A model generated the notes under the pieces. The model saw nothing but the letters and a program-made list of their open reading frames with translations, made no database searches and was not told the origin of the DNA. A stretch of 64,000 nt of DNA from a virus (lineage: Duplodnaviria; Caudoviricetes): IMG/VR virus record IMGVR_UViG_2772190776_000003, positions 11,067 to 75,066 of that record; one strand, written 5' to 3'. Positions 8,718 through 59,919 of the stretch are shown one piece after another; positions within the stretch are counted from its first letter, which is position 1, and each line of letters starts with the position of its first letter. A program made the position numbers and the translations under genes.

Positions 8718-11700
8718 TGCAGGCTAATTGGGGCAAATATGTCTTCGTCGGCTGTACTGGTGGCAGGCTGCGCCACGGCAAGCGGTACGGGGGCGGCCGG
8801 TGTTGAGGGCTGTGCGCCCTGCTCTTGCGCGGGTGGTGTGCTGAACAGGTCTGGCGGGGGCTGCACGGTTTGCTCCAGTTGCAGCCATTTAGACTCTGGC
8901 CATTTGTGGAGGCCGTTGGCCATGGCGGCATGCAGCGAATAGTTTCGGCAGTTGCCCGCGATGAAGGTTTTGCCGCCACGGCGCACGATCAAGGTGCCAT
9001 TGGGAACTGTTGCGCAATAGACACGCCCTGCGTAGTGCACGGTTTGGCCGATGTAGCCACGTTTGCCATTGCCACCGCCGTCTAGATAGGCACGCGAGGA
9101 AAGCCGTTCATAGACGTGGTATTGCAGTTTGGGGGTGGTGGGTGATTGATGCCCGCTGATGACAGGCCGGTGTTTGGGCTGCACCACCCGCATAGTGGCC
9201 GCGTTACCAGTTTTGATGAACAGCTCCTGCATGTCATCAGCCAGCAACCGCGATGTGGTTGCATAAGCCCGGTTTGGCCGGTGGTGCGCTTTGCGCTGCT
9301 GCGCCCAACCATCGCCTGCAATAGCGGCGTTCAGGAAGGCTGCGATTACGCTGGGCTTGGCATCTTTGATCCATTGCGGCACGCGGCGCTCATGCTGGAG
9401 TGCACCAAGCGGCGCCACGAGGTCGTAGACCTGTTTGCAGGTGAAGATGTATCTGTCATGGGTGACATGGAACTTCCAAGGCAGACGAGCGAGCAGTGCT
9501 TCAATTTCAAGACGTCGATGGGGCTTGGTTTGATGGATGGTGACGCGCCTGCGCACATTGCCTTGTGTTTTGCTGCGCACCTCTTGCACGGAGCCTTCTG
9601 ACACCCACCAGCCAAAGAAAGCGGCCATGTCATGCGCATCTACCGCGACTTCTGGGAACAAAAGGCGGTTTTGCGCTGATATGGAGGCGGGGATGACATA
9701 GGCGTCTGCCTGGTTGCCTTGCCAGGTGGCCGCAATTTTGAGGGCATGGTGAACGGTGAGGTCTTTCGCCAAGGTAATGGCCGGTGACACATCCAAGTTC
9801 CATTTGCGCACGCCGGGGGCAATGGTCTGATGCGCTTTCTTCAAGGTCACCATGCGGTGCCCAGGCGTTACCAGCACATCAATGGACTTGCCTTTGAGTT
9901 GCACCATGTCGCCGCTGTAGGGTTTGTCAATGAGTAGCGATGGCTGCTGGTACTCCATCAGGTCGGTGGACAGGTTGACCGTGGCCAGAAGGTCTTCATA
10001 GCAGACATCGCCCCAGCGCTTCCAGCCTGTATGGGTGAGCACTTCAGTTTCTGCGTCAAAGCAGTCCAACACTTCATTGCGTGGGCGGCGTTTGACCCAC
10101 TTGTAAACGTCCCGGCCTTGCACCTTGGCCAGGATGCGCTGCTCGGCAGTGAGCTGCTCATACCATTCGCGGGGGAGCTCCTGGCTGGTGTGCACATAGC
10201 CGGGGCCTGGCTCTGTAATGGCGAGCTGGCCCAGCAGCAGGTCTTTGGCGTTGTCTACGCCTACGAGCCACAGCTTGATGCCTTTGGCGATCTTGCGGCC
10301 GCGGTGGTTGACCTCCTGCATGCTGCTGGGGCCCACGATGTTGCGGTTGTCGTTGGTGTCACCCTTGATGGCACGGAGGTTGGCAATCCTGGTCTGGGTA
10401 TTGCGCACCCAGTTGTAGACGGCCTGGGTCTGGTCTGAGGAGTCAATGCTGACTGCAGACAAGCCCAGGGTGCCACCGTGGAGCGCCTGGGGGAAGCGCT
10501 GGAGCAGGAACTGCTCTACGGGCTCCCAATCTGCGTCATTGGCTGGGTTGCCGTAGATGACGTGGTGCATCACTGTCCAGCTCTCCAGGCCCCTGCCCCA
10601 CCCCCAGATGGCGATTTCCCAGCGGTCACGCTGCACGTCAACCCCGGCTGTCAGGTACAGCGCGCCCACAGGTACGCGGCCGAGCGGAAAGTCCTCTGCC
10701 CGCTGCTGCAGCACGTGCTCGTCGCTGCTTTCGCCCTTCACCTCCCAGGTCTCGCCCAGCGTTTCGTTGGTGAAGCTGGTCATGGGGCCCACGTCGCCAG
10801 CTTGCATGGCGCGGTAGGCTTTTTCGTGCTCGTCCACGATGCTGGCCCATGTGCGCTGGGGGCTGTAGGCCGCCCAGATGTGCACACCCAGGGTGCGCGG
10901 TGGGCGGCAGGGCTCGCCCTTGGCGTTGCGCCACTGGCCATCTGCGTCGTAGCGGATGCCGGTTTTCTTGCAGACCCATGCGCCGCTCAGGGGCCAGCCG
11001 CCGGGCAGGTAGTCTGCCTGGGTGATGCTTTCGCGGCAGTGGGGGCAGACGTGGCGCACGGTTTCGGGCTTGCCTTTTTCCCACTTGAAGCCATAGGGCA
11101 GGTCTTTGCTGCCCCAGATGAGCGGATGCTCACCACCGCAGTGCGGGCACTCTATGTGGTACTGCACATAGGCTTCAGACTCTTCACAGGCACGCTCTAC
11201 GTGGCACAGGCCTTTGATGCGGGGCGTGCTGCCGCCCACAAACTTGGGGTACGGCGCACCCTCCAGACGGCCCTTGGCCAGGCTGCCTGGGTCGCCGGAC
11301 TTCTCAATGGTCTGATCGAATGCGGACCATTCATCCAGAATGGACACGGCCACCGTAATACGCCGGTAAGCGCGTGCCGCCTTGCCACCCAGCAGGTGCA
11401 GCACCGAGTCACGGAAGGGCTTGTACTTGATGGTGTCCACCACGCCCTTGCCCTGCTTGCGTGCAGCGCGCACGGCGGGCACACCGTCCAGCACGGGCTC
11501 AATCTCGCTTTTGACGTAGCTGTCCCGGTCATCATCCGTGGGCTGCCATAGCGCCTGCTTGCGGCGGCGGTGGGCGATGTTGTAGGCCACAAAGGCCGTG
11601 ATCATCTTGGTATAGCCCACGCGCTTGGACTTTTTGACGGCCAGCTCCTCGATGCGGTCATCGCTCATGAAGTCCAGAATGCCGCGCTGGAAGGGCCACC

Positions 11701-35029: not shown

Positions 35030-35901
35030 CAGTCATCCATCCTTACCGCGTAGTAATCAATGTGGCCAGTGCGCGCCACGTCCTGCATCACAACGTGGGT
35101 AACGCCGTCGATCTCCACCGTGTTCTCCACAGCGTTGTTGAACCCGCTGATGTGATAGACGCCATCCAACTCGCCAAAAATTCCGCTGGCGGCGTCGCTC
35201 AGCACAACAGGAGTGAGCGGATAGACCCCATCCGTATCCCGCGCCTTGTTGGTTGATCCGCACAGCTGGGCGTTGCACCACGGGTATGCCTCTGGGGTTT
35301 TCCACGTGCCGTCGTTAAAACGCATACGCATGTTGTTCCATGTACCGCTACCCACCGCACGGCCTGATCCACCCTTGACCCAACAGCTGTGCGCCGTATC
35401 ACTGAACCGCGTGGTGGCCTCGCCATTGAGCATCCCCCCCACCACCATCGGGTAGGGATACTGGCTGGGCCTGGCATAGGGAAACATCTTGCCGATGTAC
35501 ATCGACTCATAGACCGGGGTGCCCACCTTCATGGCCAGCACCAGCCGCTGGCCGTTGAGGGTGAGCCAGTAGTCAATCCGCTGGTTATGGGCCGGGACAC
35601 CGCTCAAGATGACGCCAGGCTGGGCAGTGAAAGCCGCGCCGGGGACATGGCCGGTGAAGCCCGCAGCAGTCAGGTTGTAAAAGTCGGAATTGGCGTTGTC
35701 ATAGGTACGCATCCCCACAAAAATCTCTTCGGTGCCCGACAGGCCTGGCGCTTTGAGCAGCAGTTCGTGCTGGGCCTGCGTGGTGTCAAAGCGCAGCACT
35801 GTCCAGCCGTGTGCGGCCGCGAACGTGGCCACCACTTCCAGCATCTTCTGGTGGGCCAGCTTGCCGCCGCCCGCCTCTACAAATCCAATTTGATGGGGCA
35901 T
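35029..35901 (-). CDS. Virion structural protein
   Basis: PYARPSQYPYPMVVGG, GELDGVYHISGFNNAVEN. Confidence 0.75.
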   Translation of the reverse strand: MPHQIGFVEAGGGKLAHQKMLEVVATFAAAHGWTVLRFDTTQAQHELLLKAPGLSGTEEIFVGMRTYDNANSDFYNLTAAGFTGHVPGAAFTAQPGVILSGVPAHNQRIDYWLTLNGQRLVLAMKVGTPVYESMYIGKMFPYARPSQYPYPMVVGGMLNGEATTRFSDTAHSCWVKGGSGRAVGSGTWNNMRMRFNDGTWKTPEAYPWCNAQLCGSTNKARDTDGVYPLTPVVLSDAASGIFGELDGVYHISGFNNAVENTVEIDGVTHVVMQDVARTGHIDYYAVRMDD

Positions 35902-35903
35902 GT

Positions 35904-38819
35904 TTAATTTCCTATGCCCAGGAGCTGGCGGAACTTGGCCGGATTGCGGCTGAGCATGACGGTGAATGCCTCTTGGCCCTGGCGGCTGCCAAAGGCCATG
36001 GAGGCAATGCGGTCGGGGTCGTCAATGAGGTTGAGCTGCAGGCGGTTGTCGACCGTGCTGCCGCCCACATTGACGGTGGCGGGCTGAAAATTGGCGCTAG
36101 TGGGCACGCCGGAGTGCGCACCAGGCACCACCAGGCCACCGTCGGCGTAGCCTTGCCAGCCTTTAAGGGCGGCCATGCCTACGCGGTTGAACTCCGACAA
36201 AAAGGCCAGTGCACCGGGCTGGCGTACCACCTCTTGGCGGTTGACGAACTCACCCGCATGCACCACGCCTGCTGGCTGGTATTTGCCGCCGGGGCCGGTG
36301 TAGCCCCCCGAAGCAAAGCCGGGGATGGCTGCGGCCGCGCCGCTTGCGGCACCGGCGCCAGCCCCAAACATGCCCATGATGGAGCTGGCCGCACGCATGG
36401 CCAGCTGCTGGGCGGCCCACTGTGCCATAGCGCTGGCCAGGTCAGCCACAAAGCCGCGCACGGCGTCACCCAGGGTGGCGGTGCCGTCGGCCAGTGACTC
36501 CAGTGCATTCGCAAAGCTGTTGCCCAGCGCGTCGCTGAAAGCGTTTTTCAGCTCATTGGCCTGGGTGCGCAGGCCCTGCACGCGCAGCTCCATGTCGGCA
36601 AGGCCTGCGGCCAGGCTGGGGTCGCCCGTGATGGCGGCCAGCTCTTGCATGCGTGGCAGCAGTGCGGACACCTGGTCGGCGGTGCGCGTGTTCAGATCCA
36701 GAATCTGGCGCTTTGCCTGCAGCTCGCTCGTCAGACCGGCCGTGACGTTGAGCTGCAGGCTTTGCTCGGTGCGGCTGTGGTTGCTAAAGACTTGCTCCAC
36801 CTCGCGCTGCAGCTGCTGCAACTGGGCACGGGCGGTTTCGATGTCGATCAGCCGGTCGAGCTTGATCAGGTCTTCGGTCTTGCCCTCGGCCTGCAGGTCT
36901 TCGCGCAGTTTGCGGTAGCGCTCCTTGATGCGCCCGATTTCCGCATCGACGGCGCGGCCCGTGGCCTGTGCCAGTGCGGCGTCCACACTGGCCATGCCCT
37001 GGGTGATGCGCTCGGCACGGGCGCGGGCGTCCTGCAGGGCCTTGGTGGCGGCCACGGCGGCGTCGGTTTGCTGGGCCAGGCTGCGCAGCTGGGCGATGCG
37101 CGTGGCGTCCAGCTTGAGGGCGTGCTGGTTGGTGGACAGCCATGCCTGCAGCTTGACCGTGGCCTGCGCCGCGCTGCTGGCCACATTGGCCTGGGCGTTG
37201 GCCAGGGCCTGCTCGGCGGCCGCACGGGCCTGTGTGAGCTGCTGCAGCTGCGCCTGGAAGGCGCTGTCGACGGGGTTGACCTTGGTGGCTGTTTGGGGTG
37301 TCAGCTTGTCACGGACAGCCGCAATCTGGGCGTCAATCTCTGCCTGCGTCTTGCCCAGCAGCGCGCCTTGTTCCTTGATTTTCTTGGTCTCGTCGGCCAG
37401 CTGCTCGCGCCAGGTGCGCAGTGACTTGGCGCGGGCGTCCCAGCTATCGGAGGCCTCCATGCGGGCGCTGCTGTCACTGGCACGCTGGGCCGCAGTGGCC
37501 GCTTTGCGCTCTTCAGCGGTGATCTGCTTTTGAATCCGTACCACCTCGGCAAGTGCTTCCTGGCGGGCTTGCTTGGTGGTATCGACCCCTTGAATACCAA
37601 AGAAGCCCGCAATCTTGGAGCTGTTGTTGGCGGCGGTCACCAAGGTGGCGTACTCTTTTTGCGCTTCGGCCAATTGGTCAGCCAGCGGGCGGACTCGGCC
37701 GATGTTTTTCATGGCGTTCCACATGCCACCAGCTTGCTCACCCACCCAGTTAAATGCGCGCCCCAGCGCGTTCAGCTGGGCTTTGACCTCTGCCACCCGG
37801 TCGGTCATGGCCTGCGCATAGGTGCGCTGCGCCAGCGCGGCCGCATCTTCCTTGCGGCCTCGCTCTTCCAAGGCCTTGATCTGCTCATAGACCGATGCTG
37901 TGAGGTAGTTGTACTGCTCATTGAGTTTGCGGCTGGCTTCTACTGGGCTTTTGCCCAGCTCGGCAAACTTGGCCGTCATGTCACCTACAGCAGCTGCGCC
38001 CACTTGGGCCATGCCTACCGTAGCCTGCGCAGCCAAAGACAGCTGTGCATTGGCTACACGGCCTGTGGCGGCCAACTCGCGGGTGGCCTCAATGGCCAGG
38101 CTGTAAGAGCCGGTGACGCGGCCCACCGCCTGTGACGTGCTGGTGAGCTGGCTGGTGGTGGTGCCTGCGGCATTGCCATTCATGAGGATGGCGGCCGTGA
38201 ATGCCTCGCTTTCTTTGGCCCCTTGGTACCACGCCGTGCCCAGTGCAGCGACTGCGCCAAGCGCCACCGTGGTGGGGTTGACCAGGGCCAGCGTGGCTTT
38301 GGTGACGGCAGCGATGGCTGGCGCCACGCCGCCGTACATATCTTTGAGCTGGCCGCCCTGCTGCAGCGCCACCATGAGCGGGCTTTGGCCCGTGGCCAGG
38401 CCTACGGTGATGTCCGTCATCTGCGCGGGCAGCATGCGATCGGCCTGCTTGCGCATGTTGGCCTGCTTCCGGGCCTCCTTGGCGGCGGCCTCGGCGGCCT
38501 TGTTGGCTTCTGCGAGGGCCTTTTTCTCGGCCTCTGCCTGCGCGCGCAGGGCAGCCGCTGTTTCCTTGGCCGCCGCCGCCCGCTGCTTGGAGGTGGCGGT
38601 AGCGGCCTTGTCTGCCTGGGCCGTGGCCTGGCTGGCCTTGGCCGTGGCCTTGGTCGTGGTGGCAAGCTGCTCCACGGCTTTGCTGGCCGTATTGACCCGT
38701 GAGCCGGCGTTGCGCATGCCGTCCAGCTCGGCGCGCATGGCCTTGACCTGCTGCAGGGCTTCGGCAAGGTCTGCCTGCACGCGCAGCGCCACTTCCATTT
38801 GTTTGCCAGCGGTTGCCAT
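35904..38819 (-). CDS. Tail tape measure protein
   Basis: 971 aa, Ala-rich; LPAQMTDITVGLATGQSPLMVALQQGGQLKD; GFASGGYTGPGGKYQPAGVVHAGE. Confidence 0.92.
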   Translation of the reverse strand: MATAGKQMEVALRVQADLAEALQQVKAMRAELDGMRNAGSRVNTASKAVEQLATTTKATAKASQATAQADKAATATSKQRAAAAKETAAALRAQAEAEKKALAEANKAAEAAAKEARKQANMRKQADRMLPAQMTDITVGLATGQSPLMVALQQGGQLKDMYGGVAPAIAAVTKATLALVNPTTVALGAVAALGTAWYQGAKESEAFTAAILMNGNAAGTTTSQLTSTSQAVGRVTGSYSLAIEATRELAATGRVANAQLSLAAQATVGMAQVGAAAVGDMTAKFAELGKSPVEASRKLNEQYNYLTASVYEQIKALEERGRKEDAAALAQRTYAQAMTDRVAEVKAQLNALGRAFNWVGEQAGGMWNAMKNIGRVRPLADQLAEAQKEYATLVTAANNSSKIAGFFGIQGVDTTKQARQEALAEVVRIQKQITAEERKAATAAQRASDSSARMEASDSWDARAKSLRTWREQLADETKKIKEQGALLGKTQAEIDAQIAAVRDKLTPQTATKVNPVDSAFQAQLQQLTQARAAAEQALANAQANVASSAAQATVKLQAWLSTNQHALKLDATRIAQLRSLAQQTDAAVAATKALQDARARAERITQGMASVDAALAQATGRAVDAEIGRIKERYRKLREDLQAEGKTEDLIKLDRLIDIETARAQLQQLQREVEQVFSNHSRTEQSLQLNVTAGLTSELQAKRQILDLNTRTADQVSALLPRMQELAAITGDPSLAAGLADMELRVQGLRTQANELKNAFSDALGNSFANALESLADGTATLGDAVRGFVADLASAMAQWAAQQLAMRAASSIMGMFGAGAGAASGAAAAIPGFASGGYTGPGGKYQPAGVVHAGEFVNRQEVVRQPGALAFLSEFNRVGMAALKGWQGYADGGLVVPGAHSGVPTSANFQPATVNVGGSTVDNRLQLNLIDDPDRIASMAFGSRQGQEAFTVMLSRNPAKFRQLLGIGN

Positions 38820-51417: not shown

Positions 51418-52040
51418 AAGCCCGGCCCCCAGTGGCTGTAGCGGGGCTGCAGCTCATTCAAGATGCGGCGCGGATACTGCAGGTTCTCCCCGCAGTGCAC
51501 AGCTGCGCGGCGGGCTTTCCCGCAGGCTGCGTCCACTTGCTCGCGTGTGGGCTGGGTGGCACCGGAAGCCACGGCCTCACGTTGCCAATGGCCCAGCCCG
51601 CCGTTGTAGGCACGCAGCGCCACCCACATGCGGTCGTAGCTGCTATAGCGGGTGGGCGTGCGGTCGTAGAGGTATTTGTTGTAGCCCACCAGGGCACGCA
51701 AGGCCCAGGCAGGGTTGTGCGGCAGGCAGGCTGCGGGGGCAATCTTGTTCAGGTCACACCACCAGCTGGCGGTGGCGGGCATGAACTGGGCCAGGCCCCC
51801 AGCGCCTACGCGGCTGATGGCCTCTGGCTTCCAGGCAGATTCTTGGTGTACCTGTGCGGCAAAGACGGCCACGGGTGCATCCAAGCCCCACACGCTGTGT
51901 GCGGTGCGCACCAGCTGGGCACGGTATTGCTGGGCTGCGGCTGGCACCTGGGCCTGCACAGGCTGAGCGCAGGTGCTGAGCACAGCACCTGTCAGCGCTG
52001 CAGCAGCCAGCAGCCAGGCACGCATGGAACGGGCGCGCAT
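51414..52040 (-). CDS. Endolysin, SLT lytic transglycosylase with an N-terminal signal
   Basis: QVHQESAW, GLAQFMPAT, AYNGGLG. Confidence 0.9.
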   Translation of the reverse strand: MRARSMRAWLLAAAALTGAVLSTCAQPVQAQVPAAAQQYRAQLVRTAHSVWGLDAPVAVFAAQVHQESAWKPEAISRVGAGGLAQFMPATASWWCDLNKIAPAACLPHNPAWALRALVGYNKYLYDRTPTRYSSYDRMWVALRAYNGGLGHWQREAVASGATQPTREQVDAACGKARRAAVHCGENLQYPRRILNELQPRYSHWGPGL

Positions 52041-52043
52041 GGC

Positions 52044-52487
52044 TTATCCCCCCATGCTGACCGCAATCATTGCGGCCGCGATGATGACGGCCCGGCGCAG
52101 CATGCAGCCCAGCATGAAGTGCAGCGGTGCCGGGTCAATGGGGCCGCAGGTGGCGGTCATGACCTCGTCCAGCGGGATGCGTTGCCCGTCGCCTGCGAGG
52201 ATGTAGCCGCGCTCCTGGTCTTCTTGCGTGATCTCGATGCCGTCCAGGTCCCAAAGGGTGCGCAGCGCACGGGTGTCGGGGCGTGCATAGGGAAAGACTT
52301 TGCGGTCAATCCAGTACCCGGACACAGCGGCCACAGCGATCAGGTTGAGCTTGTACAGGCTGACGGGGATTTGCTGCGGCGCGATGAAAAACACCGCCAG
52401 CGACAGCAGCGCTGCAATCAGCCACCAGCTGGTCAGTCTGGGCAGCTTGGATTCGGACACGGGGGCAGGGGCCATGGCGTACTCCAT
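52044..52487 (-). CDS. Putative holin (2-3 TM)
   Basis: APQQIPVSLYKL...GYWIDRKVFPYARP...MLRRAVII. Confidence 0.85.
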   Translation of the reverse strand: MEYAMAPAPVSESKLPRLTSWWLIAALLSLAVFFIAPQQIPVSLYKLNLIAVAAVSGYWIDRKVFPYARPDTRALRTLWDLDGIEITQEDQERGYILAGDGQRIPLDEVMTATCGPIDPAPLHFMLGCMLRRAVIIAAAMIAVSMGG

Positions 52488-52536
52488 AAAAGACTTTCGG
52501 TCTGAAAGCCTTTACTGTGAAGCGCCGCATGCCTGC

Positions 52537-52555
52537 GGTCTTTTACCCCGCGTTA
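52537..52555 (-). promoter_or_regulatory. Putative Mor-dependent late promoter (lysis operon)
   Basis: Shared motif with 44172-44190. Confidence 0.6.
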
Positions 52556-52562
52556 CTAAAAC

Positions 52563-52895
52563 AAAACGGCCAATTTGGCCGTTTTCAAATCCGCCAAATT
52601 GGCAGATTCCAGCGTGTCATCGTCGTGGGTGACAAGCTCAAGGAATGCACTGGCTCGCCAGTGAGTGCCAGCTCATCAATCTGTTCATCATCCAGAACCA
52701 GCATTTCAAACAGCTTGGACTGTGAATCGACTGATTTCAAAAGCGTCGACGTCGACGCTTTTGAGAACTTCAACGCCGATTGCATGAATTTCTGTGCCAC
52801 GCGGGTTTCAATGCCCAGTGCTTTTGACCTGGGTGCTTAAAACCGCCAAATTGGCGGATTTGGCGGTCTTTGCCGCTGACTGCATAAAGCGTTGT
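52563..52895 (-). repeat. Array of palindromes and captured DUF3102-gene fragments
   Basis: 52820-52895 and 52605-52654 are exact reverse complements of 56203-56278 and 56279-56328; 52655-52819 is a foreign homologous fragment; four palindromes. Confidence 0.9.
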
Positions 52896-52994
52896 TCTCA
52901 GGAACGTCACAATGCCAAGCCGTGCGCGACGGCTGGCAATGATCGCGGCCAGTGTGGCCAAGCCAAAAAAAACGATAAAGCCCAGTAGTTCCAT
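52770..52994 (-). pseudogene. Membrane-protein gene truncated by the captured fragment
   Basis: TM N-terminus MELLGFIVFFGLATLAAIIAS runs at 52895 into an out-of-frame copy of DUF3102-gene sequence. Confidence 0.5.
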
Positions 52995-53012
52995 GGTTTG
53001 CCCCCCCGGCGC

Positions 53013-53495
53013 TTATGCGCCTATTTCTTCGTGCATTTTGATTTCGCTTCGTTCAATGATCGTCTCACAGTAGCGGCGTGCACGAAATACCTCCCCGTCA
53101 GTCAGTTCAAGCACGCGGCTGGTGCCGAACGTGGTCTCCATCCACTTCACCACTGTCTGCTCTTTGCCGGTGCGGCGCATCAGCCGCAGCAGCTCCCTCC
53201 GGTCCACCGTGAGGCGCTGCTTTTTTTCAGTCTGCACTACTGGCCGGTTTTGAATGTGCAGGGTCACCTGGTTGACCACCACCGGGCCGCCTGCCTGGCC
53301 TATCTGTACATTGCCTTTGCCTACATCAGCCATGGTCATGCCAGTGCCCATATTTGCGGCCTCTGCTGCAGGCGTAAGTCCTTGCACTGGTGGTGGCGGG
53401 GGTGGCGGTTCTGTCTGTGGGGCCGGGCCATTGTTTAACACGTACCTCACTGCGGTTCGCAGCTTTTTTTTGAACCATTGCCACATTTCACACAC
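53013..53495 (-). CDS. Hypothetical protein co-transcribed with the repressor
   Basis: GGAG RBS; shares TMADVGKGNVQIGQ with the repressor tail TMSHVGDGNVQVGQ. Confidence 0.65.
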   Translation of the reverse strand: MCEMWQWFKKKLRTAVRYVLNNGPAPQTEPPPPPPPVQGLTPAAEAANMGTGMTMADVGKGNVQIGQAGGPVVVNQVTLHIQNRPVVQTEKKQRLTVDRRELLRLMRRTGKEQTVVKWMETTFGTSRVLELTDGEVFRARRYCETIIERSEIKMHEEIGA

Positions 53496-53532
53496 TCCCT
53501 GCCGTGACCCGGCCTTTGTTGTTATTGCCCGA

Positions 53533-53928
53533 TTACTGCCCTTGCTTGACTTTCACCCTCGCGCCTTGGCCCACCTGCACGTTGCCATCGCCCACATGCG
53601 ACATCGTCATGCCGCCTGGCGCCCCCGACGCTAATGCCGCGATGGCGGCCTTGCGCACGGCAGGCGCCGCATCACGAAAGAGATGCAGCAGGGTTTGCTC
53701 TTCCATGGTGAGCTGCGGTGCTTGTGTGTCTCCGCGTTTGCCCGTAACCACATAGGCCACGTCTACGCCGGCCATGGCCACGCCTGCCAGGTATTCGGCA
53801 TCTGGCGTGCGATCCCCTGCCTCGTAGTTGATCTGCGCGCGTTTTTGCACGCCGCCGATGGCGGCGAACCGTTCCTGAGAGACCTTGAGGCGCTCCCGTT
53901 CTTCGCGCAATCGTTGCCCTATGCTCAT
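53533..53928 (-). CDS. Transposable-phage repressor (XRE HTH)
   Basis: IGQRLREERERLKVSQERFAAIGGVQKRAQINYEAGDRTPDAEYL. Confidence 0.9.
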   Translation of the reverse strand: MSIGQRLREERERLKVSQERFAAIGGVQKRAQINYEAGDRTPDAEYLAGVAMAGVDVAYVVTGKRGDTQAPQLTMEEQTLLHLFRDAAPAVRKAAIAALASGAPGGMTMSHVGDGNVQVGQGARVKVKQGQ

Positions 53929-53947
53929 TTAGACACCAAAAAATGTA

Positions 53948-53976
53948 TTGCAAAGGTGCACAAACGTGCACATAAT
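53948..53976 (+). promoter_or_regulatory. Early promoter with operator
   Basis: TTGCAA-17-CATAAT with the GTGCAC-AAAC-GTGCAC dyad in the spacer. Confidence 0.7.
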
Positions 53977-54039
53977 GCGTTCAACAAGTTCAACAAATCA
54001 CTACTAGTTAGCGCTAGTAGCTACACAAAGGGACGCAGC

Positions 54040-54294
54040 ATGACACCCAAAACTTGCGAACAGGCCCCGGTGCTCAAAACGCGCGAACAAGTCCGCAACG
54101 AGTTCAGAAGCAAGGGCTTATCGATCTCCGCGTGGGCGGTGAAGCATGGTTTCAACCCTGCGCTGGTGACCGCCATCATCAACGATGACGATGCCAGGCC
54201 CGCACGCAAATGCCTGCGCGGCGACAGCCACAACATTGCTGTCGCGCTGGGCATCAAAAGCGGCGAGGTCTCCCGCGAGCGTCTGGTTGCCTGA
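54040..54294 (+). CDS. Ner-like DNA-binding protein (BcepMu gp16 type)
   Basis: GLSISAWAVKHGF...CLRGDSHNIAVALGIK; divergent from the repressor. Confidence 0.85.
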   Translation: MTPKTCEQAPVLKTREQVRNEFRSKGLSISAWAVKHGFNPALVTAIINDDDARPARKCLRGDSHNIAVALGIKSGEVSRERLVA

Positions 54295-54372
54295 GCGTCC
54301 CTATGTTGCAGCGAAATATTACAGGCAATCCGCCGGGCCAGGCGCAGCTGATGTTTGCCCAATGTCACCGCG

Positions 54373-54666
54373 TCACCCCCCGTACTTGCGGGTTTGAGGC
54401 AAGTCATTGCCGTCCACCAGTCCTGCCAGCTGGCACAGGTACAGCTGCCAGCTGTTCCATGCAGCGCCGTCGCGGTCTTTTCGTCCATCTGCCCGTGCCT
54501 GCAGCTCCAGCCTTTGCGCTGCATCCAGCAGGCTTTGCCGTGGCAGCTGGCGTGCCAGCTCAACCAGCAGCCAGTGCTGCGCCCATGCCTGGTCCTCGAG
54601 TGGCCGCAGGCGCTGCTGCACGGCCCGCTCGACCAGCTTTTGCATCAGTGAAGTGTCAACGCCCAT
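54373..54666 (-). CDS. Hypothetical protein
   Basis: 97 aa with a GGAGG RBS, antisense to the early operon. Confidence 0.5.
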   Translation of the reverse strand: MGVDTSLMQKLVERAVQQRLRPLEDQAWAQHWLLVELARQLPRQSLLDAAQRLELQARADGRKDRDGAAWNSWQLYLCQLAGLVDGNDLPQTRKYGG

Positions 54667-54760
54667 ATCGCCTCCATGCAGTTCGTTGGGGCCAGTGTCA
54701 AGGCGCGGTGCATTTCAGCGTGGATTTTTTTCGGAAGACATGAGGAAGGAGGAAGTTCAG

Positions 54761-55246
54761 ATGCGCCTGCGCAATTGGAAACAGTACAGGCCCATAAGCC
54801 TGCCGGACGCCATCCGGGCCTGCAAGGACTACGCGCTGGAGAAAAAGGGGCTGTCTGTGGCCAGGATCTGCGTGTTCCTGTGCACCAACGAGGACACGTT
54901 TTACAAGTGGGCAAGCACTGGCCGCATGCCCGCTCTGGTCATCCCCCAGTTTGAGCTGATCTGTGGATGCCACTACGTGAGCGACTTTTTGTCGGCCCAC
55001 GCTGGCCGCATCGTCATCCCGATGCCCAAGGGCCAAAAGGCCACGGAGTCTGCGCTGCTGGCCGTTAACCAGGCATGCGCGGACGCGGTGTCCACGCTGG
55101 CCAAGTTCTATGCCAACCCCGCCAGCGTGGACACCGGCGCGCTGTTGGCTCAGTTGCGGCAGCACCTGGAGCAGGTGGCATTCCACCACGGCAATGTCCA
55201 GCGCTACCACCAGCCAGAGCTGGAGGGTTTCAGCCATGACGACTAA
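54761..55246 (+). CDS. Conserved B3-type early protein (HTH)
   Basis: MRLRNWKQYRPISL...FYKWASTGRMP...FELICGCHYVS; GGAGGA RBS. Confidence 0.7.
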   Translation: MRLRNWKQYRPISLPDAIRACKDYALEKKGLSVARICVFLCTNEDTFYKWASTGRMPALVIPQFELICGCHYVSDFLSAHAGRIVIPMPKGQKATESALLAVNQACADAVSTLAKFYANPASVDTGALLAQLRQHLEQVAFHHGNVQRYHQPELEGFSHDD

Positions 55247-55553
55247 CGCCATCCCACTGGACGCTGTGCGCGCTGCGCTGACAGGCTGCGCCGTGAAAGC
55301 AAAGCGCGACAGACAGGGCAAGCCCACCGGGCGCGTGGCCGCATTTACGCGCTATCAGCACTTTGCGCCCTGCTGCAGCCGCAAGGGCGTGCCTGCCGAC
55401 ACGTTCATTCACTTTGCGGTGATGGAGCACGGCGAGCTGTCTCGCCTCGTGGATCGCGTCAGCGCTGAGCATGGCGCGGATGCCGTGCGCCACATCTGGG
55501 GCGTTGGCGTGCGTGCCCTGAAAGCAGAGATTGGTGCGGGGGTGCTTGTATGA
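55236..55553 (+). CDS. Hypothetical protein
   Basis: GGAGG RBS, overlaps both neighbours. Confidence 0.55.
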   Translation: MTTNAIPLDAVRAALTGCAVKAKRDRQGKPTGRVAAFTRYQHFAPCCSRKGVPADTFIHFAVMEHGELSRLVDRVSAEHGADAVRHIWGVGVRALKAEIGAGVLV

Positions 55554-55852
55554 GCGCCGGTGTCACCAAGAGCGCAGCACCCGTGCTGCAGGTCCTCGAA
55601 GCCCTGTGCGGCTTTGCCGAACAAGGCGCATCCAACAAGGACCTGGCCGACGCCTGCAAGACCACCCCCGTGCAAGTGACCCGTGCCACGCAGACGCTGA
55701 TTGCTTACGGCTGGTGCCGCAAGAGCGATGAGACGGGGCGCTTTTACCCCACGGCCGCTTTTACCCGCCTGACTTTCAAGGTGTTGGACAGCTTTGACAA
55801 GGCCCAGCGGCGCCTGGAAGACCGCCGCCATTCGATGACTTCTGGTTTTTAA
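55550..55852 (+). CDS. IclR-type HTH protein
   Basis: VLQVLEAL...SNKDLA...VTRATQTLIAYGW. Confidence 0.75.
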   Translation: MSAGVTKSAAPVLQVLEALCGFAEQGASNKDLADACKTTPVQVTRATQTLIAYGWCRKSDETGRFYPTAAFTRLTFKVLDSFDKAQRRLEDRRHSMTSGF

Positions 55853-55876
55853 CTGTTAACTGATTGGAGAAACCAC

Positions 55877-56800
55877 ATGGCTCGTACCCCTAACGCAGTG
55901 CTTAAACCCGTGGCCGACGTCGTGCTCAACGACCAGGCTGTTGCACGTATTGAAAGCGCACAGGAGGCGCTGGCTGTCATGGACCAGGAGGCCCAGGCCC
56001 GCGTCCGCGCTGTGGCCTTGAGTGTGGGCTATGAGGGCACATTGAGTGTGGGAGCGCTGGAAGGCGAGATTCGCTTTTATCAGCGCCGCACGGTCGAGGC
56101 CATTTTGGAAACCGGCAAGCGCTTGCTGGTGCTCAAGGAGATGACCCCGCATGGCGAGTTCAAGCAGCGTGTGGAGATGCTCGGATTTTCCGAGCGCACA
56201 GCACAACGCTTTATGCAGTCAGCGGCAAAGACCGCCAAATCCGCCAATTTGGCGGTTTTAAGCACCCAGGTCAAAAGCGCCAGTGCATTCCTTGAGCTTG
56301 TCACCCACGACGATGACACGCTGGAATCCCTCAAGGACATGGACGACATCGACCGCATGAGCGCCAGCGAGCTGCGCCAGGCCCTGCGCCAGGCCAAGGA
56401 GGACAACCGCTTCCTGGCAGAAAAGCGCGACAAGGAGTCGCAGCGTGCCGACAAGCTGGAAAAACAGCTGCGCTCTGGTCCCAGCACGCAGCCACTGGAC
56501 GAACGTCTGCAGGGCTTTTGCGCCGATATCAACAAGGCTAACGACGCGGCATGCGAGGCATTGCTGCAGGCCAAGCAGCAGGCCCAGGCGCTGGAGCGCT
56601 GGTGGCTGGAAGAAGCCGCCAAGCAGCCCGGCTACTCGCCTGGCGACTACGTGCCGATGCCCGATGAGGTCAAGGCAGCGGCCCAAAAGCTCTACGACAA
56701 CCTGTCACGCCTGACTCTGTCCGCCGCCGCATTGCGCCAGGAGCTGTGGGACACCTACGGCCAGGACCTGCAGGCTTTCGTGGATACCACCGCCGCATAA
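55877..56800 (+). CDS. DUF3102-like protein preceding the transposase
   Basis: ILETGKRLLVLKEMTPHGEF...GFSERTAQRFM; IDRMSASELRQALR. Confidence 0.78.
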   Translation: MARTPNAVLKPVADVVLNDQAVARIESAQEALAVMDQEAQARVRAVALSVGYEGTLSVGALEGEIRFYQRRTVEAILETGKRLLVLKEMTPHGEFKQRVEMLGFSERTAQRFMQSAAKTAKSANLAVLSTQVKSASAFLELVTHDDDTLESLKDMDDIDRMSASELRQALRQAKEDNRFLAEKRDKESQRADKLEKQLRSGPSTQPLDERLQGFCADINKANDAACEALLQAKQQAQALERWWLEEAAKQPGYSPGDYVPMPDEVKAAAQKLYDNLSRLTLSAAALRQELWDTYGQDLQAFVDTTAA

Positions 56801-56803
56801 GCC

Positions 56804-58609
56804 ATGCACACCGACCTGGAGGCTACTGACATGGCTTCACTGAGCCCTGCAATCTGCGATTACATCCGTCAGCTGGCGCGCAAGCTGGATGACGCGCCCC
56901 ACGGCACGGGCGGCAAGCTGCTGGACGAGGCCACCGCATTCCTGGGCATGAGCCGCCAGACCGTGTACCGCCACCTCAAGAAGGTGGCGGGCTGGGAAAG
57001 TGGCCGCAAGTGCCGTGCCGACAAAGGCACCACTAGCGTGAACAGCGCCGCGCTGCTGACGCTGGCCACGATCCAGCGCGAGAGCGTGCGCGACAACGGC
57101 AAGCAGACCATGCACACCCCGGTGGCACGCAGCGTGCTGGAGGCCAATGGCCTGCAAGTGGACGTGAGTAACGCGCACCTGAACCGGCTATTGCGTGACC
57201 GCGGGTTGAATGTGCAGGCCCAGCGCCAGGCAACGCCTGCAACCAAGCTGCGCTACCCGCACCCCAATCACACGCACCAGGTGGACCCCAGCCTGTGCCT
57301 GGTGTACTACCTCAACGGCCGCCAGCACATCATGGAGGACAGCCAGTTCTACAAGAACAAGCTCGAAAACCTTGCGAAAGTGAAGTTCAAGGTCTGGCGG
57401 TATGCCCTCTACGACGGTGCGTCGGGCGCAATCGTGGTCTGGTACTGCGAAGCAGCGGGCGAGACCCAGGCCAACCTGTTCAACTTCCTGATGCACGCAT
57501 GGGGCAAGCAGGATGGCCGCCTGTTTCATGGTGTGCCCAAGGTGATGGTGTGGGACAAGGGCTCGGCCAACACATCGCACGCTATCGGCCACCTGTTGCG
57601 CGCGCTGGAAGTGGAGGCGATCACCCACGAGGCCGGCAATGCACGCGCCAAAGGCGGCGTGGAAAACGCCAACAACGTCATCGAAACCCAGTTCGAGAGC
57701 CGCCTGCGCTTTGAACCTGTGGACAACGTCGAGCAGCTCAATGCTGCGGCCACGGCCTGGTGTGAGGCATACAACGCCAACCTGATCCCCGGCCAAGACA
57801 CTCGCCTGCGCCGCGATGGCTTGGCCGAGCCTGTGTCGCGCTATGCACTGTGGCAGCGCATCCGCAGCGATGAACTGCGCCTGCTGCCTGATGTGGAGGT
57901 GTGCCGCGCGCTGATGGCGGGCAAAGAAGTGGAACGCAAGGTGGATGCGCACCTGTGCATCCGCTTTAAGCACCCCAAGGCAGAGTCCACGCGCACCTAC
58001 AGCCTCAGCGGCCTGCATGGCGTGAATGTGGGTGACGTTGTCAGTGTGCGGCCCCTGGTGTATGGCGAGCAGGCCATACAGATCGAGCTGCAGCGCTACG
58101 ACGGTGAGCCGCTGGTGTACCGCGTCGAACCAGAAACCGAGTTTGACGAATTCGGTTTCCCGCTGTCTGCCGCCGTGCCTGGCGAGGGCTACAAGTCCCA
58201 CGCCAAGACCGTGGCCGAGGCGGCCGGCGAGGCGATGGACGAGCTGGCCTTCCCTGGCCAGGACGCCACGGCAGCACGTCAAAAAGGGGCTGTGCCGTTT
58301 GGCGGCGAGATCAAGGCGCACAGCTACCTGGCCGAAGTCGAGCACCCCAGCTATCTGCAGCGCCCCGGCGTGGAAATCGCCACACCTGCGCACGCCAAGG
58401 CCGAGCCGGTGCTGCTCGACGCTGTCACCGTGATGCTGCGCATCCGCAAGGAGCTGGGCCGCAATCTGACGGTGCAAGAGAACCAGTTTATGACCGCGCG
58501 TTTCAAGGACGGCGTGCCAGAAGACCAGCTGGCCGTGCTCATTGAGCAGCTCAAGAACGCCGGCAAGGATCAGCCCGCACGCGCCGCTGGCGGCCTGCGT
58601 GTGGTGTGA
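56804..58609 (+). CDS. DDE transposase (MuA-equivalent)
   Basis: HQVDPS, VWDKGSAN, AKGGVENANN catalytic triad; RADKG. Confidence 0.92.
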   Translation: MHTDLEATDMASLSPAICDYIRQLARKLDDAPHGTGGKLLDEATAFLGMSRQTVYRHLKKVAGWESGRKCRADKGTTSVNSAALLTLATIQRESVRDNGKQTMHTPVARSVLEANGLQVDVSNAHLNRLLRDRGLNVQAQRQATPATKLRYPHPNHTHQVDPSLCLVYYLNGRQHIMEDSQFYKNKLENLAKVKFKVWRYALYDGASGAIVVWYCEAAGETQANLFNFLMHAWGKQDGRLFHGVPKVMVWDKGSANTSHAIGHLLRALEVEAITHEAGNARAKGGVENANNVIETQFESRLRFEPVDNVEQLNAAATAWCEAYNANLIPGQDTRLRRDGLAEPVSRYALWQRIRSDELRLLPDVEVCRALMAGKEVERKVDAHLCIRFKHPKAESTRTYSLSGLHGVNVGDVVSVRPLVYGEQAIQIELQRYDGEPLVYRVEPETEFDEFGFPLSAAVPGEGYKSHAKTVAEAAGEAMDELAFPGQDATAARQKGAVPFGGEIKAHSYLAEVEHPSYLQRPGVEIATPAHAKAEPVLLDAVTVMLRIRKELGRNLTVQENQFMTARFKDGVPEDQLAVLIEQLKNAGKDQPARAAGGLRVV

Positions 58610-59919
58610 AAGCGAGGGAAATGATGAACCAAGAAACCGACCTGCTGCAGCTGCACTTGCACCAGATCCTGAAAGACCTGTGCACGACCCAGGCTGCGCT
58701 GGCCAAGTACCTGCGCAAGCAGCTCAAGCTGCCCATTTCATCGGCCACCGTGTGCCTGATTTGCCGCTACGACAGCTGGCCCCGCCGTCCGAGCATGGGC
58801 TACGAGGTGCTGGCGCCCCATATCAAGCGCTTTCTGCTCGAGAACGGCGCCACCGCACAGCAGCTGGAAATTGCGTTCGAGCGCGTACACGGCCCCCGCG
58901 AATCTCTTAACGGAGGTGAGCCACTGCAGCGCGGCAACGCTGCAGCGGCCCCTGTTTCCCCCGGCCAGAAGGCCACTTTTGATGAGGACTTGACGATGCT
59001 TTTGCGACACCAACGCCTGGCCCCCGAGACCCGCCAGCACTTCAAAATTGTACGGGACTCTTTTGTGAACGAGATGTGCGGCCCCGACGATGTCTTCCTG
59101 AGTGACGATATCCGGTATGTGCGCGCCGCAGTACGCCAGACCGCACAGCACGGCGGCATGCTGGCTGTGACAGGCGAGTCCGGCTCGGGCAAAAGCACGA
59201 TCCGCAAGGACTTGCTGGCGTGGATCGCGGCCAGCGGTGAGCCTGTGATCGTGATCGAGCCCTACGTGGTGGGCATGAGCGCCACCAGCAAGGCCGGGCG
59301 CCCGCTGCTGGCAAGCGATATCACTGCCGCAGTGATCCGCAACCTGGCCCCCAGTGTGTCTCCCCGACTCAGCCACGAGCGCCGGACCGAGCAGATGCAC
59401 AGCATCTTGCGCGAGAGCGCCCGTGTGGGCAACAAGCATGTGCTGATCATCGAAGAGGCACACGATCTGGCCGTGCCAACGCTCAAGGCCATGAAGCGCT
59501 TTTACGAGCTGGAGGACGGCTTCAAAAAGCTGCTATCCATCATCCTGATCGGACAGCCCGAGCTGGCACGCAAGCTCAGTGAACAAAGTCCGGAAGTGCG
59601 GGAGGTGGTGCAGCGCTGCGAGCTGGTGACGCTGCCGCCGCTGGACAACAACGTGGGCGACTACCTGGCTTTCAAGTTCAAGCGTGTGGGCATGGACGCG
59701 GAAAAGATCATCGAGCCTGGTGCGGTCGATGCCATCCGCACCGTGTTGCGCCGCCATGTGCGCGAAACCTTCGGCGCACGCCAGGGCACGGTGCAGTCCC
59801 TGTGCTATCCGCTGGCGATCAACAACCTGCTGACCCGCGCCATGAATGCCGCCGTGCAAATCGGTGCGCCCAAGGTCACGGATGAGCTGGTGATGGCGGC
59901 CATTCGCGGGGGAGACTGA
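58606..59919 (+). CDS. AAA ATPase (MuB/ExeA-like)
   Basis: GESGSGKST, LIIEEAH, ILIGQPEL, EVVQRC. Confidence 0.9.
   Translation: MKAREMMNQETDLLQLHLHQILKDLCTTQAALAKYLRKQLKLPISSATVCLICRYDSWPRRPSMGYEVLAPHIKRFLLENGATAQQLEIAFERVHGPRESLNGGEPLQRGNAAAAPVSPGQKATFDEDLTMLLRHQRLAPETRQHFKIVRDSFVNEMCGPDDVFLSDDIRYVRAAVRQTAQHGGMLAVTGESGSGKSTIRKDLLAWIAASGEPVIVIEPYVVGMSATSKAGRPLLASDITAAVIRNLAPSVSPRLSHERRTEQMHSILRESARVGNKHVLIIEEAHDLAVPTLKAMKRFYELEDGFKKLLSIILIGQPELARKLSEQSPEVREVVQRCELVTLPPLDNNVGDYLAFKFKRVGMDAEKIIEPGAVDAIRTVLRRHVRETFGARQGTVQSLCYPLAINNLLTRAMNAAVQIGAPKVTDELVMAAIRGGD

Follow-up and report, generated by a model that had tools for sequence, protein, structure and literature searches.

A palindrome inside the DUF3102 genes of B3/BcepMu-like transposable phages varies jointly with the DNA-reading helix encoded beside it and is probably an operator of the encoded protein

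DUF3102 proteins, a family whose function is unknown, occur widely in transposable phages and also in other phage-like elements. The member analyzed here is encoded in a 64,000-nucleotide (nt) stretch of DNA (hereafter the window; positions 11,067 to 75,066 of the IMG/VR provirus record IMGVR_UViG_2772190776_000003), where it belongs to the early operon of a B3-like transposable phage. Its gene contains a palindrome that is probably a binding site of the protein itself. The gene, the codons of its putative DNA-reading helix and the palindrome are arranged as follows, with positions given in the window.

55877..56800, + strand: DUF3102 gene, 307 amino acids (PF11300, E-value (E) 2.6e-7; phrog_1748, E 1.5e-41; AlphaFold 2 (AF2) model with a predicted local distance difference test score (pLDDT) of 91.2)
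56189..56206, + strand: codons S105-Q110, start of the recognition helix of a helix-turn-helix (HTH), which covary with core bases of the palindrome; proposed specificity determinants
56237..56259, no strand: palindrome, AAATCCGCCAA-T-TTGGCGGTTTT; proposed cognate operator of a DUF3102 dimer

The palindrome (AAATCCGCCAATTTGGCGGTTTT) has 11-bp arms around a central T at 56248 and a single T.T mismatch. It writes the peptide K121-S-A-N-L-A-V-L128 of the open reading frame (ORF) 55877-56800, which comes after the helix ..SERTAQRFMQSAAKTA (helix 106-121 in the AF2 model), as a preliminary description of this DNA had stated. Chance is ruled out as its origin by shuffles of the window, synonymous shuffles and the background rate over 78 loci, and the pattern AAAWCSGCCAAWTTGGCSGWTTT, allowing up to three mismatches, matches the window four times and 100 shuffles not at all. 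A direct repeat (ACCGCCAAA / TCCGCCAAT) occupies 56228-56245, 5' of the left arm and overlapping it; in RNA folding its upstream copy pairs with the right arm of the palindrome instead.

Homologues were sampled together with their DNA from 80 viral loci (72 distinct), 80 loci in bacterial genomes (77 distinct) and cultured phages, and were given a palindrome score, which at 8 stands for about eight net matched pairs. Of the 72 distinct viral genes, 54 score at least 8 at the homologous codons with variable cores, which bears out the earlier claim that the symmetry is kept while the sequence changes. The codon-aligned comparison with synonymous shuffles that had been proposed as a check reveals excess symmetry at the site: the mean score is 9.4 against 3.6 for the shuffles, none of 200 shuffles attains the observed score in 45 of the 72 genes, and the site is the best palindrome of its gene in 60. 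The genes from bacterial genomes (Comamonadaceae, Acinetobacter, Moraxella, Rhodocyclales and others) replicate this result, with scores of at least 8 in 56 of 77. The site is also found in B3 and in seven of eight further cultured phages, those with the site being BcepMu (gp10, 30 bp), phiE255 (gp41), PhiKM, cyanophage Mae-JY22, phiSHP3, Fc22, YO107_2 and B3; in phage Bise it is weak. When palindromes with arms of 10 and at most one mismatch were counted over 78 loci (908 kb), 60 were at the site and 169 elsewhere. Among 22 distant PF11300 genes, which came from 19 of 401 genomes of Pseudomonadota, 17 score at least 7 exactly after the recognition helix. The outer flanks, CAAA[A/T]...[A/T]TTTG, are conserved even in these distant genes and the cores vary, with at least 14 core classes among 82 genes.

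A second palindrome, with core GTCCCAAATTGGGAC, lies within the DUF3102 gene of a few relatives (L006 6282-6302, L009 6282-6302 and L031 at nt 263 of the gene). It sits in an insertion of about nine codons, some 100 nt upstream of the canonical site, and L031 has lost the canonical palindrome and kept this second one.

Dyad symmetry at the site is selected at the nucleotide level. Leucine at the fifth and eighth positions of the peptide is encoded by TTG in 55/58 and 67/71 cases, against 352/2429 elsewhere in the genes; lysine at the first position is AAA in 63/65 (background 418/1107) and asparagine at the fourth is AAT in 40/42 (background 147/551). Pairs of amino acids across the site vary jointly in the way that base pairing dictates (A..A, L..S, S..E, P..G, D..S). 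The coding sequence is thus visibly shaped by an embedded DNA site, both in forced rare codons and in amino-acid pairs that are coupled only through the base pairing of their codons. The arms contain 686 Watson-Crick pairs out of 721, only three of the other 35 being G.T, and of the two innermost pairs one is intact in 57 of 59 sites and the other in all 59. Duplex DNA fits this pattern better than an RNA hairpin, because G.T is almost absent and because innermost pairs that are impossible in a hairpin loop are kept; the RNA hairpin that had been offered as one possible form of the recognized site is accordingly disfavored.

What kind of protein could read such a site? The Pfam match of the window protein to DUF3102 scores 31.3 bits against a cut-off of 24.4 and covers residues 73-172. 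From N- to C-terminus, the model shows a helix, a KorB/ParB-type HTH domain (about residues 55-175) and three long helices packed into a bundle. A domain-only model (residues 55-175, pLDDT 92.4) was compared with 48,161 chains, and the best match was the complex of the KorB DNA-binding domain with its operator (1r71_A; Z 9.0, root mean square deviation 3.1, 109/114 residues). It was followed by KorB 8qa8_A (Z 8.3), Spo0J 1vz0 (Z 8.3) and ParB-parS 6s6h (Z 7.3), so that the top four chains are KorB, KorB, Spo0J and ParB-parS, each spanning nearly the whole domain. A Z of at least 8 was reached in this search by only three chains, all KorB or Spo0J, and lower scores were obtained for SopB (5.6), P1 ParB (5.5) and VirB (4.8). 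By this model the DUF3102 domain has a ParB/KorB-type HTH fold, with Z values that are moderate for a helical domain. Residues 19-50 are modeled as a single long helix where an N-terminal ParB domain would be, and a Pfam scan of the protein found DUF3102 only, with no match of the ParBc type (cytidine triphosphate (CTP)-binding). Foldseek searches of the PDB with the whole protein and with the domain gave no match at E ≤0.001; ParB, Noc and KorB appeared there only at E 2-4 (Noc at about 2). No NCBIfam family matched the protein, and its ESM Atlas matches were all below 0.9 and uninformative.

The evidence that ties the protein to the site is covariation, which was examined in 82 odd-centered sites of the B3-like clade. 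Residue 110 (the x in TA-x-RFM) follows base 6 of the half-site: arginine goes with G in 29/30, glutamine with C in 22/24, asparagine with C in 3/3, and A, F, H, S or W with T in 16/16. Residue 107 follows base 5, with R/G in 58/58, P/C in 6/6 and T/T in 6/6. Normalized mutual information with the core (MI(core)/H) is highest at the start of the recognition helix (Q110 0.76, R107 0.75, E106 0.56, S105 0.53), whereas residues 117, 119, 120 and 129-131, which are nearer to the site and equally variable, reach 0.32-0.41 and shuffles about 0.28. Sign tests on independent pairs, using a tree made without columns 100-135, gave the following associations.

R110 with G at base 6: same way in 12.8/13, p 0.0002
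Q/N110 with C at base 6: same way in 10.3/13, p 0.012
A/F/H/S/W/Y110 with T at base 6: same way in 12.9/15, p 0.0002
R107 with G at base 5: same way in 8.5/15, p 0.008

The base that covaries with residue 110 is the third position of the Ser122 codon, which is TCG with Arg110, TCC or AGC with Gln110, and AGT or TCT with a hydrophobic residue 110. This rule holds in 72 of 77 cases, a level attained by none of 10,000 label shuffles, and because the position is synonymous a contact within the protein cannot explain the covariation. Counted from the conserved outer flank, the distant subfamilies repeat the Q/C (11/11) and R/G (4/4) pairings, and arginine three positions before residue 110, the place of R107, goes with G in 9/9. 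Pairing of arginine with guanine and of hydrophobic side chains with the thymine methyl group is established in protein-DNA recognition. The preliminary description had proposed that the protein reads the site and that reader and site change together, and the covariation makes this very probable. The covarying residues are nevertheless not those of the peptide written by the palindrome, which had been supposed to be the reader: changes in residues 121-128 are those dictated by compensatory base changes, and the covariation lies at residues 105-110.

Because the palindrome varies jointly with the DNA-reading helix, the gene most likely holds the protein's own binding site. The favored explanation, to which we give a probability of roughly two in three, is that the palindrome is a duplex DNA operator of the DUF3102 protein inside its own gene, with helix 105-110 as the predicted reader and the peptide as a passenger. 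DUF3102, an early protein of B3/BcepMu-like transposable phages, would bind the palindrome with its KorB/ParB-type HTH and is probably dimerized by its C-terminal helical bundle. Each recognition helix (S-E-R-T-A-Q in the window), encoded 11-16 codons upstream of the palindrome, would read core positions 4-7 of one half-site, and the conserved outer flanks and A/T center would form the part of the site common to the family; the sequence of K121-L128 would simply be dictated by the site. Since no more than about 70 bp separate the specificity residues from the site, reader and site would be inherited as one module, and lineages could therefore diversify into distinct protein/site pairs. The protein may bind in cis at this site, some 0.55 kb before the transposase gene, and when bound could act as a roadblock or autoregulator that sets the output of the transposase/ATPase operon, or could mark the phage's own DNA. 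Two ideas would fit the retention of the in-gene position over deep divergence: close linkage may protect the pair against mosaic recombination, and the protein may bind in cis at once.

If so, DUF3102 gains a function hypothesis, that of a DNA binder with a KorB/ParB fold, and each member of the family a predicted site; from the covarying series of proteins and sites, the code by which this fold recognizes DNA could be read and tested. Such close linkage of a reader to its site may also be a way for mobile elements to retain private regulatory specificities despite rampant mosaic recombination. In B3/BcepMu-type phages, where the transposase gene comes directly after the DUF3102 gene, transposition may be controlled at a point that has so far gone unstudied.

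Several observations weigh against this explanation. For a helical domain a Z of 9.0 is moderate, since 6.0-7.2 is obtained for the Raf1 alpha domain, which is unrelated, and a profile of 66 DUF3102 sequences run against all PDB sequences retrieved no ParB or KorB chain at E ≤10. The site is not universal: 13 of the 72 viral genes score below 7, Ps60 has no such site across its whole genome, and a third viral set, heterogeneous in composition, has it in only 13 of 38 genes, a subclade of about 12 being without it. Palindromes of 23-32 bp exceed what one HTH per half-site needs. The pairing rules have exceptions, with Tyr110 accompanied by T in six cases, C in two and G in one at base 6, and leucine in the distant subfamilies by C in four and T in two. 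The covarying positions are merely some 30-70 bp apart, and since residue 110 needs 40 changes over 82 leaves, the independent-pair counts may be inflated by block exchange of a module of HTH plus site. Lastly, a near-identical phage in runs X2 and X7 has a CGGCC-type site, with the compensatory changes 56242 C>G and 56254 G>C, and may combine Gln110 with a G-type site; its listed differences begin at 56230, with 43 undisplayed. A scan of viral contigs with the exact site of L009, aimed at this X2/X7-type allele, returned only L009's own contig.

The DUF3102 gene is flanked by genes of the same operon, which include the following.

55550..55852, + strand: small winged-helix regulator (phrog_1368, E 3.7e-24)
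56804..58609, + strand: rve-type transposase, 601 amino acids (phrog_310, E 1.5e-86), starting 4 nt past the DUF3102 stop
58606..59919, + strand: AAA+ DNA transposition protein, MuB-like (phrog_296, E 1e-59; AAA_22, E 1.3e-18)

Upstream of the DUF3102 gene are the winged-helix regulator, a CII-like protein and a Ner-like HTH protein. By PHROG the locus has the B3/BcepMu-like set of Ner-like HTH protein, regulator, DUF3102, rve transposase and AAA+ B, with a repressor and late genes divergent, and the gene order is that of Pseudomonas phage B3, the repressor-side and late genes being on the opposite strand. The order regulator-DUF3102-transposase is common to B3, BcepMu, phiE255, phiSHP3, Ps60 and Fc22, and PhiKM has one small extra ORF ahead of the transposase. 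The BcepMu transposase homologue is annotated as Tn552/IS1604 rve; the alignment of the window transposase to phrog_310 begins only at profile position 126 of 696, the N-terminal part of the profile being absent from the protein. In run X7 there is an 18-nt tandem insertion behind window position 53978, 5' of the Ner-like gene.

Further palindromes of the same type lie outside the gene, at 52563-52898 on the minus strand, in a chimeric, non-coding and out-of-frame array between the repressor-side operon and putative lysis genes.

52820..52898, - strand: inverted 79-nt copy of gene positions 56200-56278, with one difference, at 56202; palindrome at 52839-52861
52655..52819, - strand: 165-nt fragment of another DUF3102 allele (..LGIETRVAQKFMQSALKFSKASTSTLLKS..), out of frame; perfect 26-bp palindrome at 52738-52763
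52605..52654, - strand: inverted 50-nt copy of gene positions 56279-56328, 100% identical
52563..52609, no strand: two abutting 23-bp palindromes of the same architecture with other cores, a perfect one of CGGCC type at 52563-52585 and a degenerate one at 52587-52609

The 165-nt fragment is most like DUF3102 alleles of the Ps60/L076 type. The preliminary description had spoken of a foreign homologue in which a different peptide, KASTSTLL, is again encoded by a palindrome; the palindrome is there, and as a perfect 26-mer it is stronger than the in-gene site, but it belongs to this out-of-frame fragment and not to a gene. In one frame the array reads ..FMQSAAKTAKSANLAVLSTQVKS-TGH-stop and ..ASAFLELVTHDDDTLES-ANLADL-KTAKLAVLF-stop, and even its two "naked" 23-bp palindromes resemble snippets of DUF3102 alleles. 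The gene-fragment part of the array is lineage-specific, since the major contig of run X2 has 52 other letters in place of 52604-53001; copies like the 79- and 50-nt pieces were not found in five close relatives (L005-L009). An invertible segment was considered and rejected: the inverted copies are 3.3 kb apart and no strand-changing joints occur in the contigs of four runs, from which rare forms could escape. A diversity-generating retroelement was likewise rejected, the copies being 99-100% identical and not adenine-mutated, with no reverse transcriptase noticed among the nearby ORFs scanned.

Across the family such extra-genic sites are rare and mostly found at the end of the repressor-side operon (window, L078, L082/L134 and L122), and they often match the resident allele. 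The window array includes a copy of the window's own in-gene site, the external CGGCC site retained in X2 matches the X2 in-gene core, and the perfect external site of L078 equals the helix-proximal half of a hybrid in-gene site. L071/L126 provide a counter-example, with a site 42 nt upstream of the gene that carries another core. A multi-site regulon was rejected: about ±6 kb around the site contain no second copy of the core in 58 homologous loci, and the whole B3 genome contains it once.

Could the palindrome act in some other way? One alternative makes it a hairpin of RNA or single-stranded DNA, serving as an attenuator or terminator in either direction or as a stabilizer or processing site of the early mRNA, with no involvement of the protein. 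The sense RNA does fold well (-19.3 kcal/mol, z -4.6; array hairpins -27 and -23.4 kcal/mol), the flanks are runs of A and T, and the extra copies at the end of the repressor-side operon are placed where a terminator would be expected, the array palindrome 52585-52563 (minus strand) indeed being scored as terminator-like. That palindrome is, however, the only one called by the terminator scan, which passes over the in-gene site with its only four T; antisense folding has a z of merely -1.7, and Rfam has no match at E ≤1 in window 52000-57500. The scarcity of G.T and the innermost pairs also speak against a hairpin, which would leave the covariation with amino acids 105-110 unexplained, and we consider this alternative unlikely. 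The symmetry might instead mark a recombination or replication hotspot without a dedicated reader, maintained by hairpin-templated repair and giving rise to mosaic joints and to the array. The breakpoint of the X2/X7 variant adjoins the site, the L078 in-gene site is a hybrid of two half-sites, and the pieces of different alleles that make up the window array meet at or near palindromes. A hotspot would not explain the fixed codon position over deep divergence, the conserved flanks, the A/T center or the amino-acid/base covariation, and the contigs of the four runs lack inversion or strand-change joints, which makes it quite improbable.

The site could also belong to a different protein, such as the upstream winged-helix regulator, the repressor or the N-terminus of the transposase, the covariation with the DUF3102 helix then reflecting linkage. 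The conserved order of regulator, DUF3102 and transposase genes, the tight linkage of the covarying positions and the presence of further 20-bp palindromes in phage regulatory regions are compatible with this. Yet it is the canonical base-contacting end of the DUF3102 helix that shows the strongest covariation, with low values at variable residues nearer to the site, and the R/G and Q/C pairings recur in distant subfamilies that have other neighbors (phrog_5931 and phrog_2345, not phrog_1368). We regard ownership by another protein as very improbable.

The reading of the palindrome as an operator of DUF3102 itself can be set beside known systems. KorB of the IncP plasmid RK2 is the best structural match of the central domain, and DUF3102 sites are likewise mostly odd-centered with A/T flanks; KorB is described as a homodimer and its operator OB as a palindrome of 13 bp, odd-centered and A/T-rich in its outer parts, on which the footprint exceeds 22 bp (PMC5577506). 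Unlike KorB, DUF3102 has three long C-terminal helices instead of the N-terminal (CTP-binding) ParB domain and the β-barrel dimerization domain, and shows no sequence-level similarity; most DUF3102 phages have one site, within the gene, and not 12 operators. The DNA-binding fold is also common to the ParB/Spo0J-parS and Noc-NBS systems. For ParB, a further report describes a recognition helix that enters the major groove of palindromic parS and a switch of specificity by a few residues (PMC7383237). No ParA partner, CTPase domain or partition role is evident for DUF3102, whose hosts are transposable phages. In B. subtilis a parS site was reportedly located inside spo0J itself, by Lin and Grossman in 1998, whereas the DUF3102 site occupies a fixed codon position after the recognition helix family-wide and diversifies with that helix.

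Intragenic operators are known in lacO2 within lacZ and the PurR site in purB, which resemble the DUF3102 site in that a repressor-type site in a coding region can modulate downstream transcription. Those sites are auxiliary, however, and lie in other genes without co-diversification with their reader. A reported mRNA structure at the 5' end of parB is a different phenomenon (PMC13371061). Within the partial texts covered, a full-text literature search on the name DUF3102 found no work on function, and searches on palindromes of BcepMu, B3 and transposable phages and on sites within their own coding sequence found nothing relevant.

A more far-reaching version, which we hold only tentatively and think rather doubtful, is that DUF3102 genes are self-contained specificity modules forming many orthogonal protein/site pairs under the code R-G, Q-C and hydrophobic-T, and that the window array is functional. 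Recombination could not then part reader from site, because the operator would be written into the codons beside the reading helix, and competing transposable phages would evolve orthogonal pairs with a readable amino-acid/base code. The window array, with its four sites of three or four specificities, could in that case be a decoy for DUF3102 proteins made by rival phages, or a means of sensing them; alternatively, it might be a record of allele replacements, the external site tracking the resident allele.

Some observations concern other parts of these genomes. In one distant DUF3102 subfamily (L179 1761-2585, L185 431-1396 and L189 350-1393) the upstream neighbor is phrog_5931 (E about 1e-55), and L179 shows a weak ParB-like match (phrog_1033, E 6.6e-6); Pfam found nothing on the neighbors of distant DUF3102 genes even at E ≤5. 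Phage Bise (L011), which bears DUF3102, has an annotated reverse transcriptase family protein at 35606-36637 near the tail-fiber end, with no evident relation to the palindrome. The 20-bp palindromes mentioned above form another class, perfect or near-perfect, found in relatives about 1.6 kb 5' of the DUF3102 gene in the divergent repressor/Ner region (e.g., L008 4353-4372, L012, L027, L036 and L043), and are probably repressor operators.

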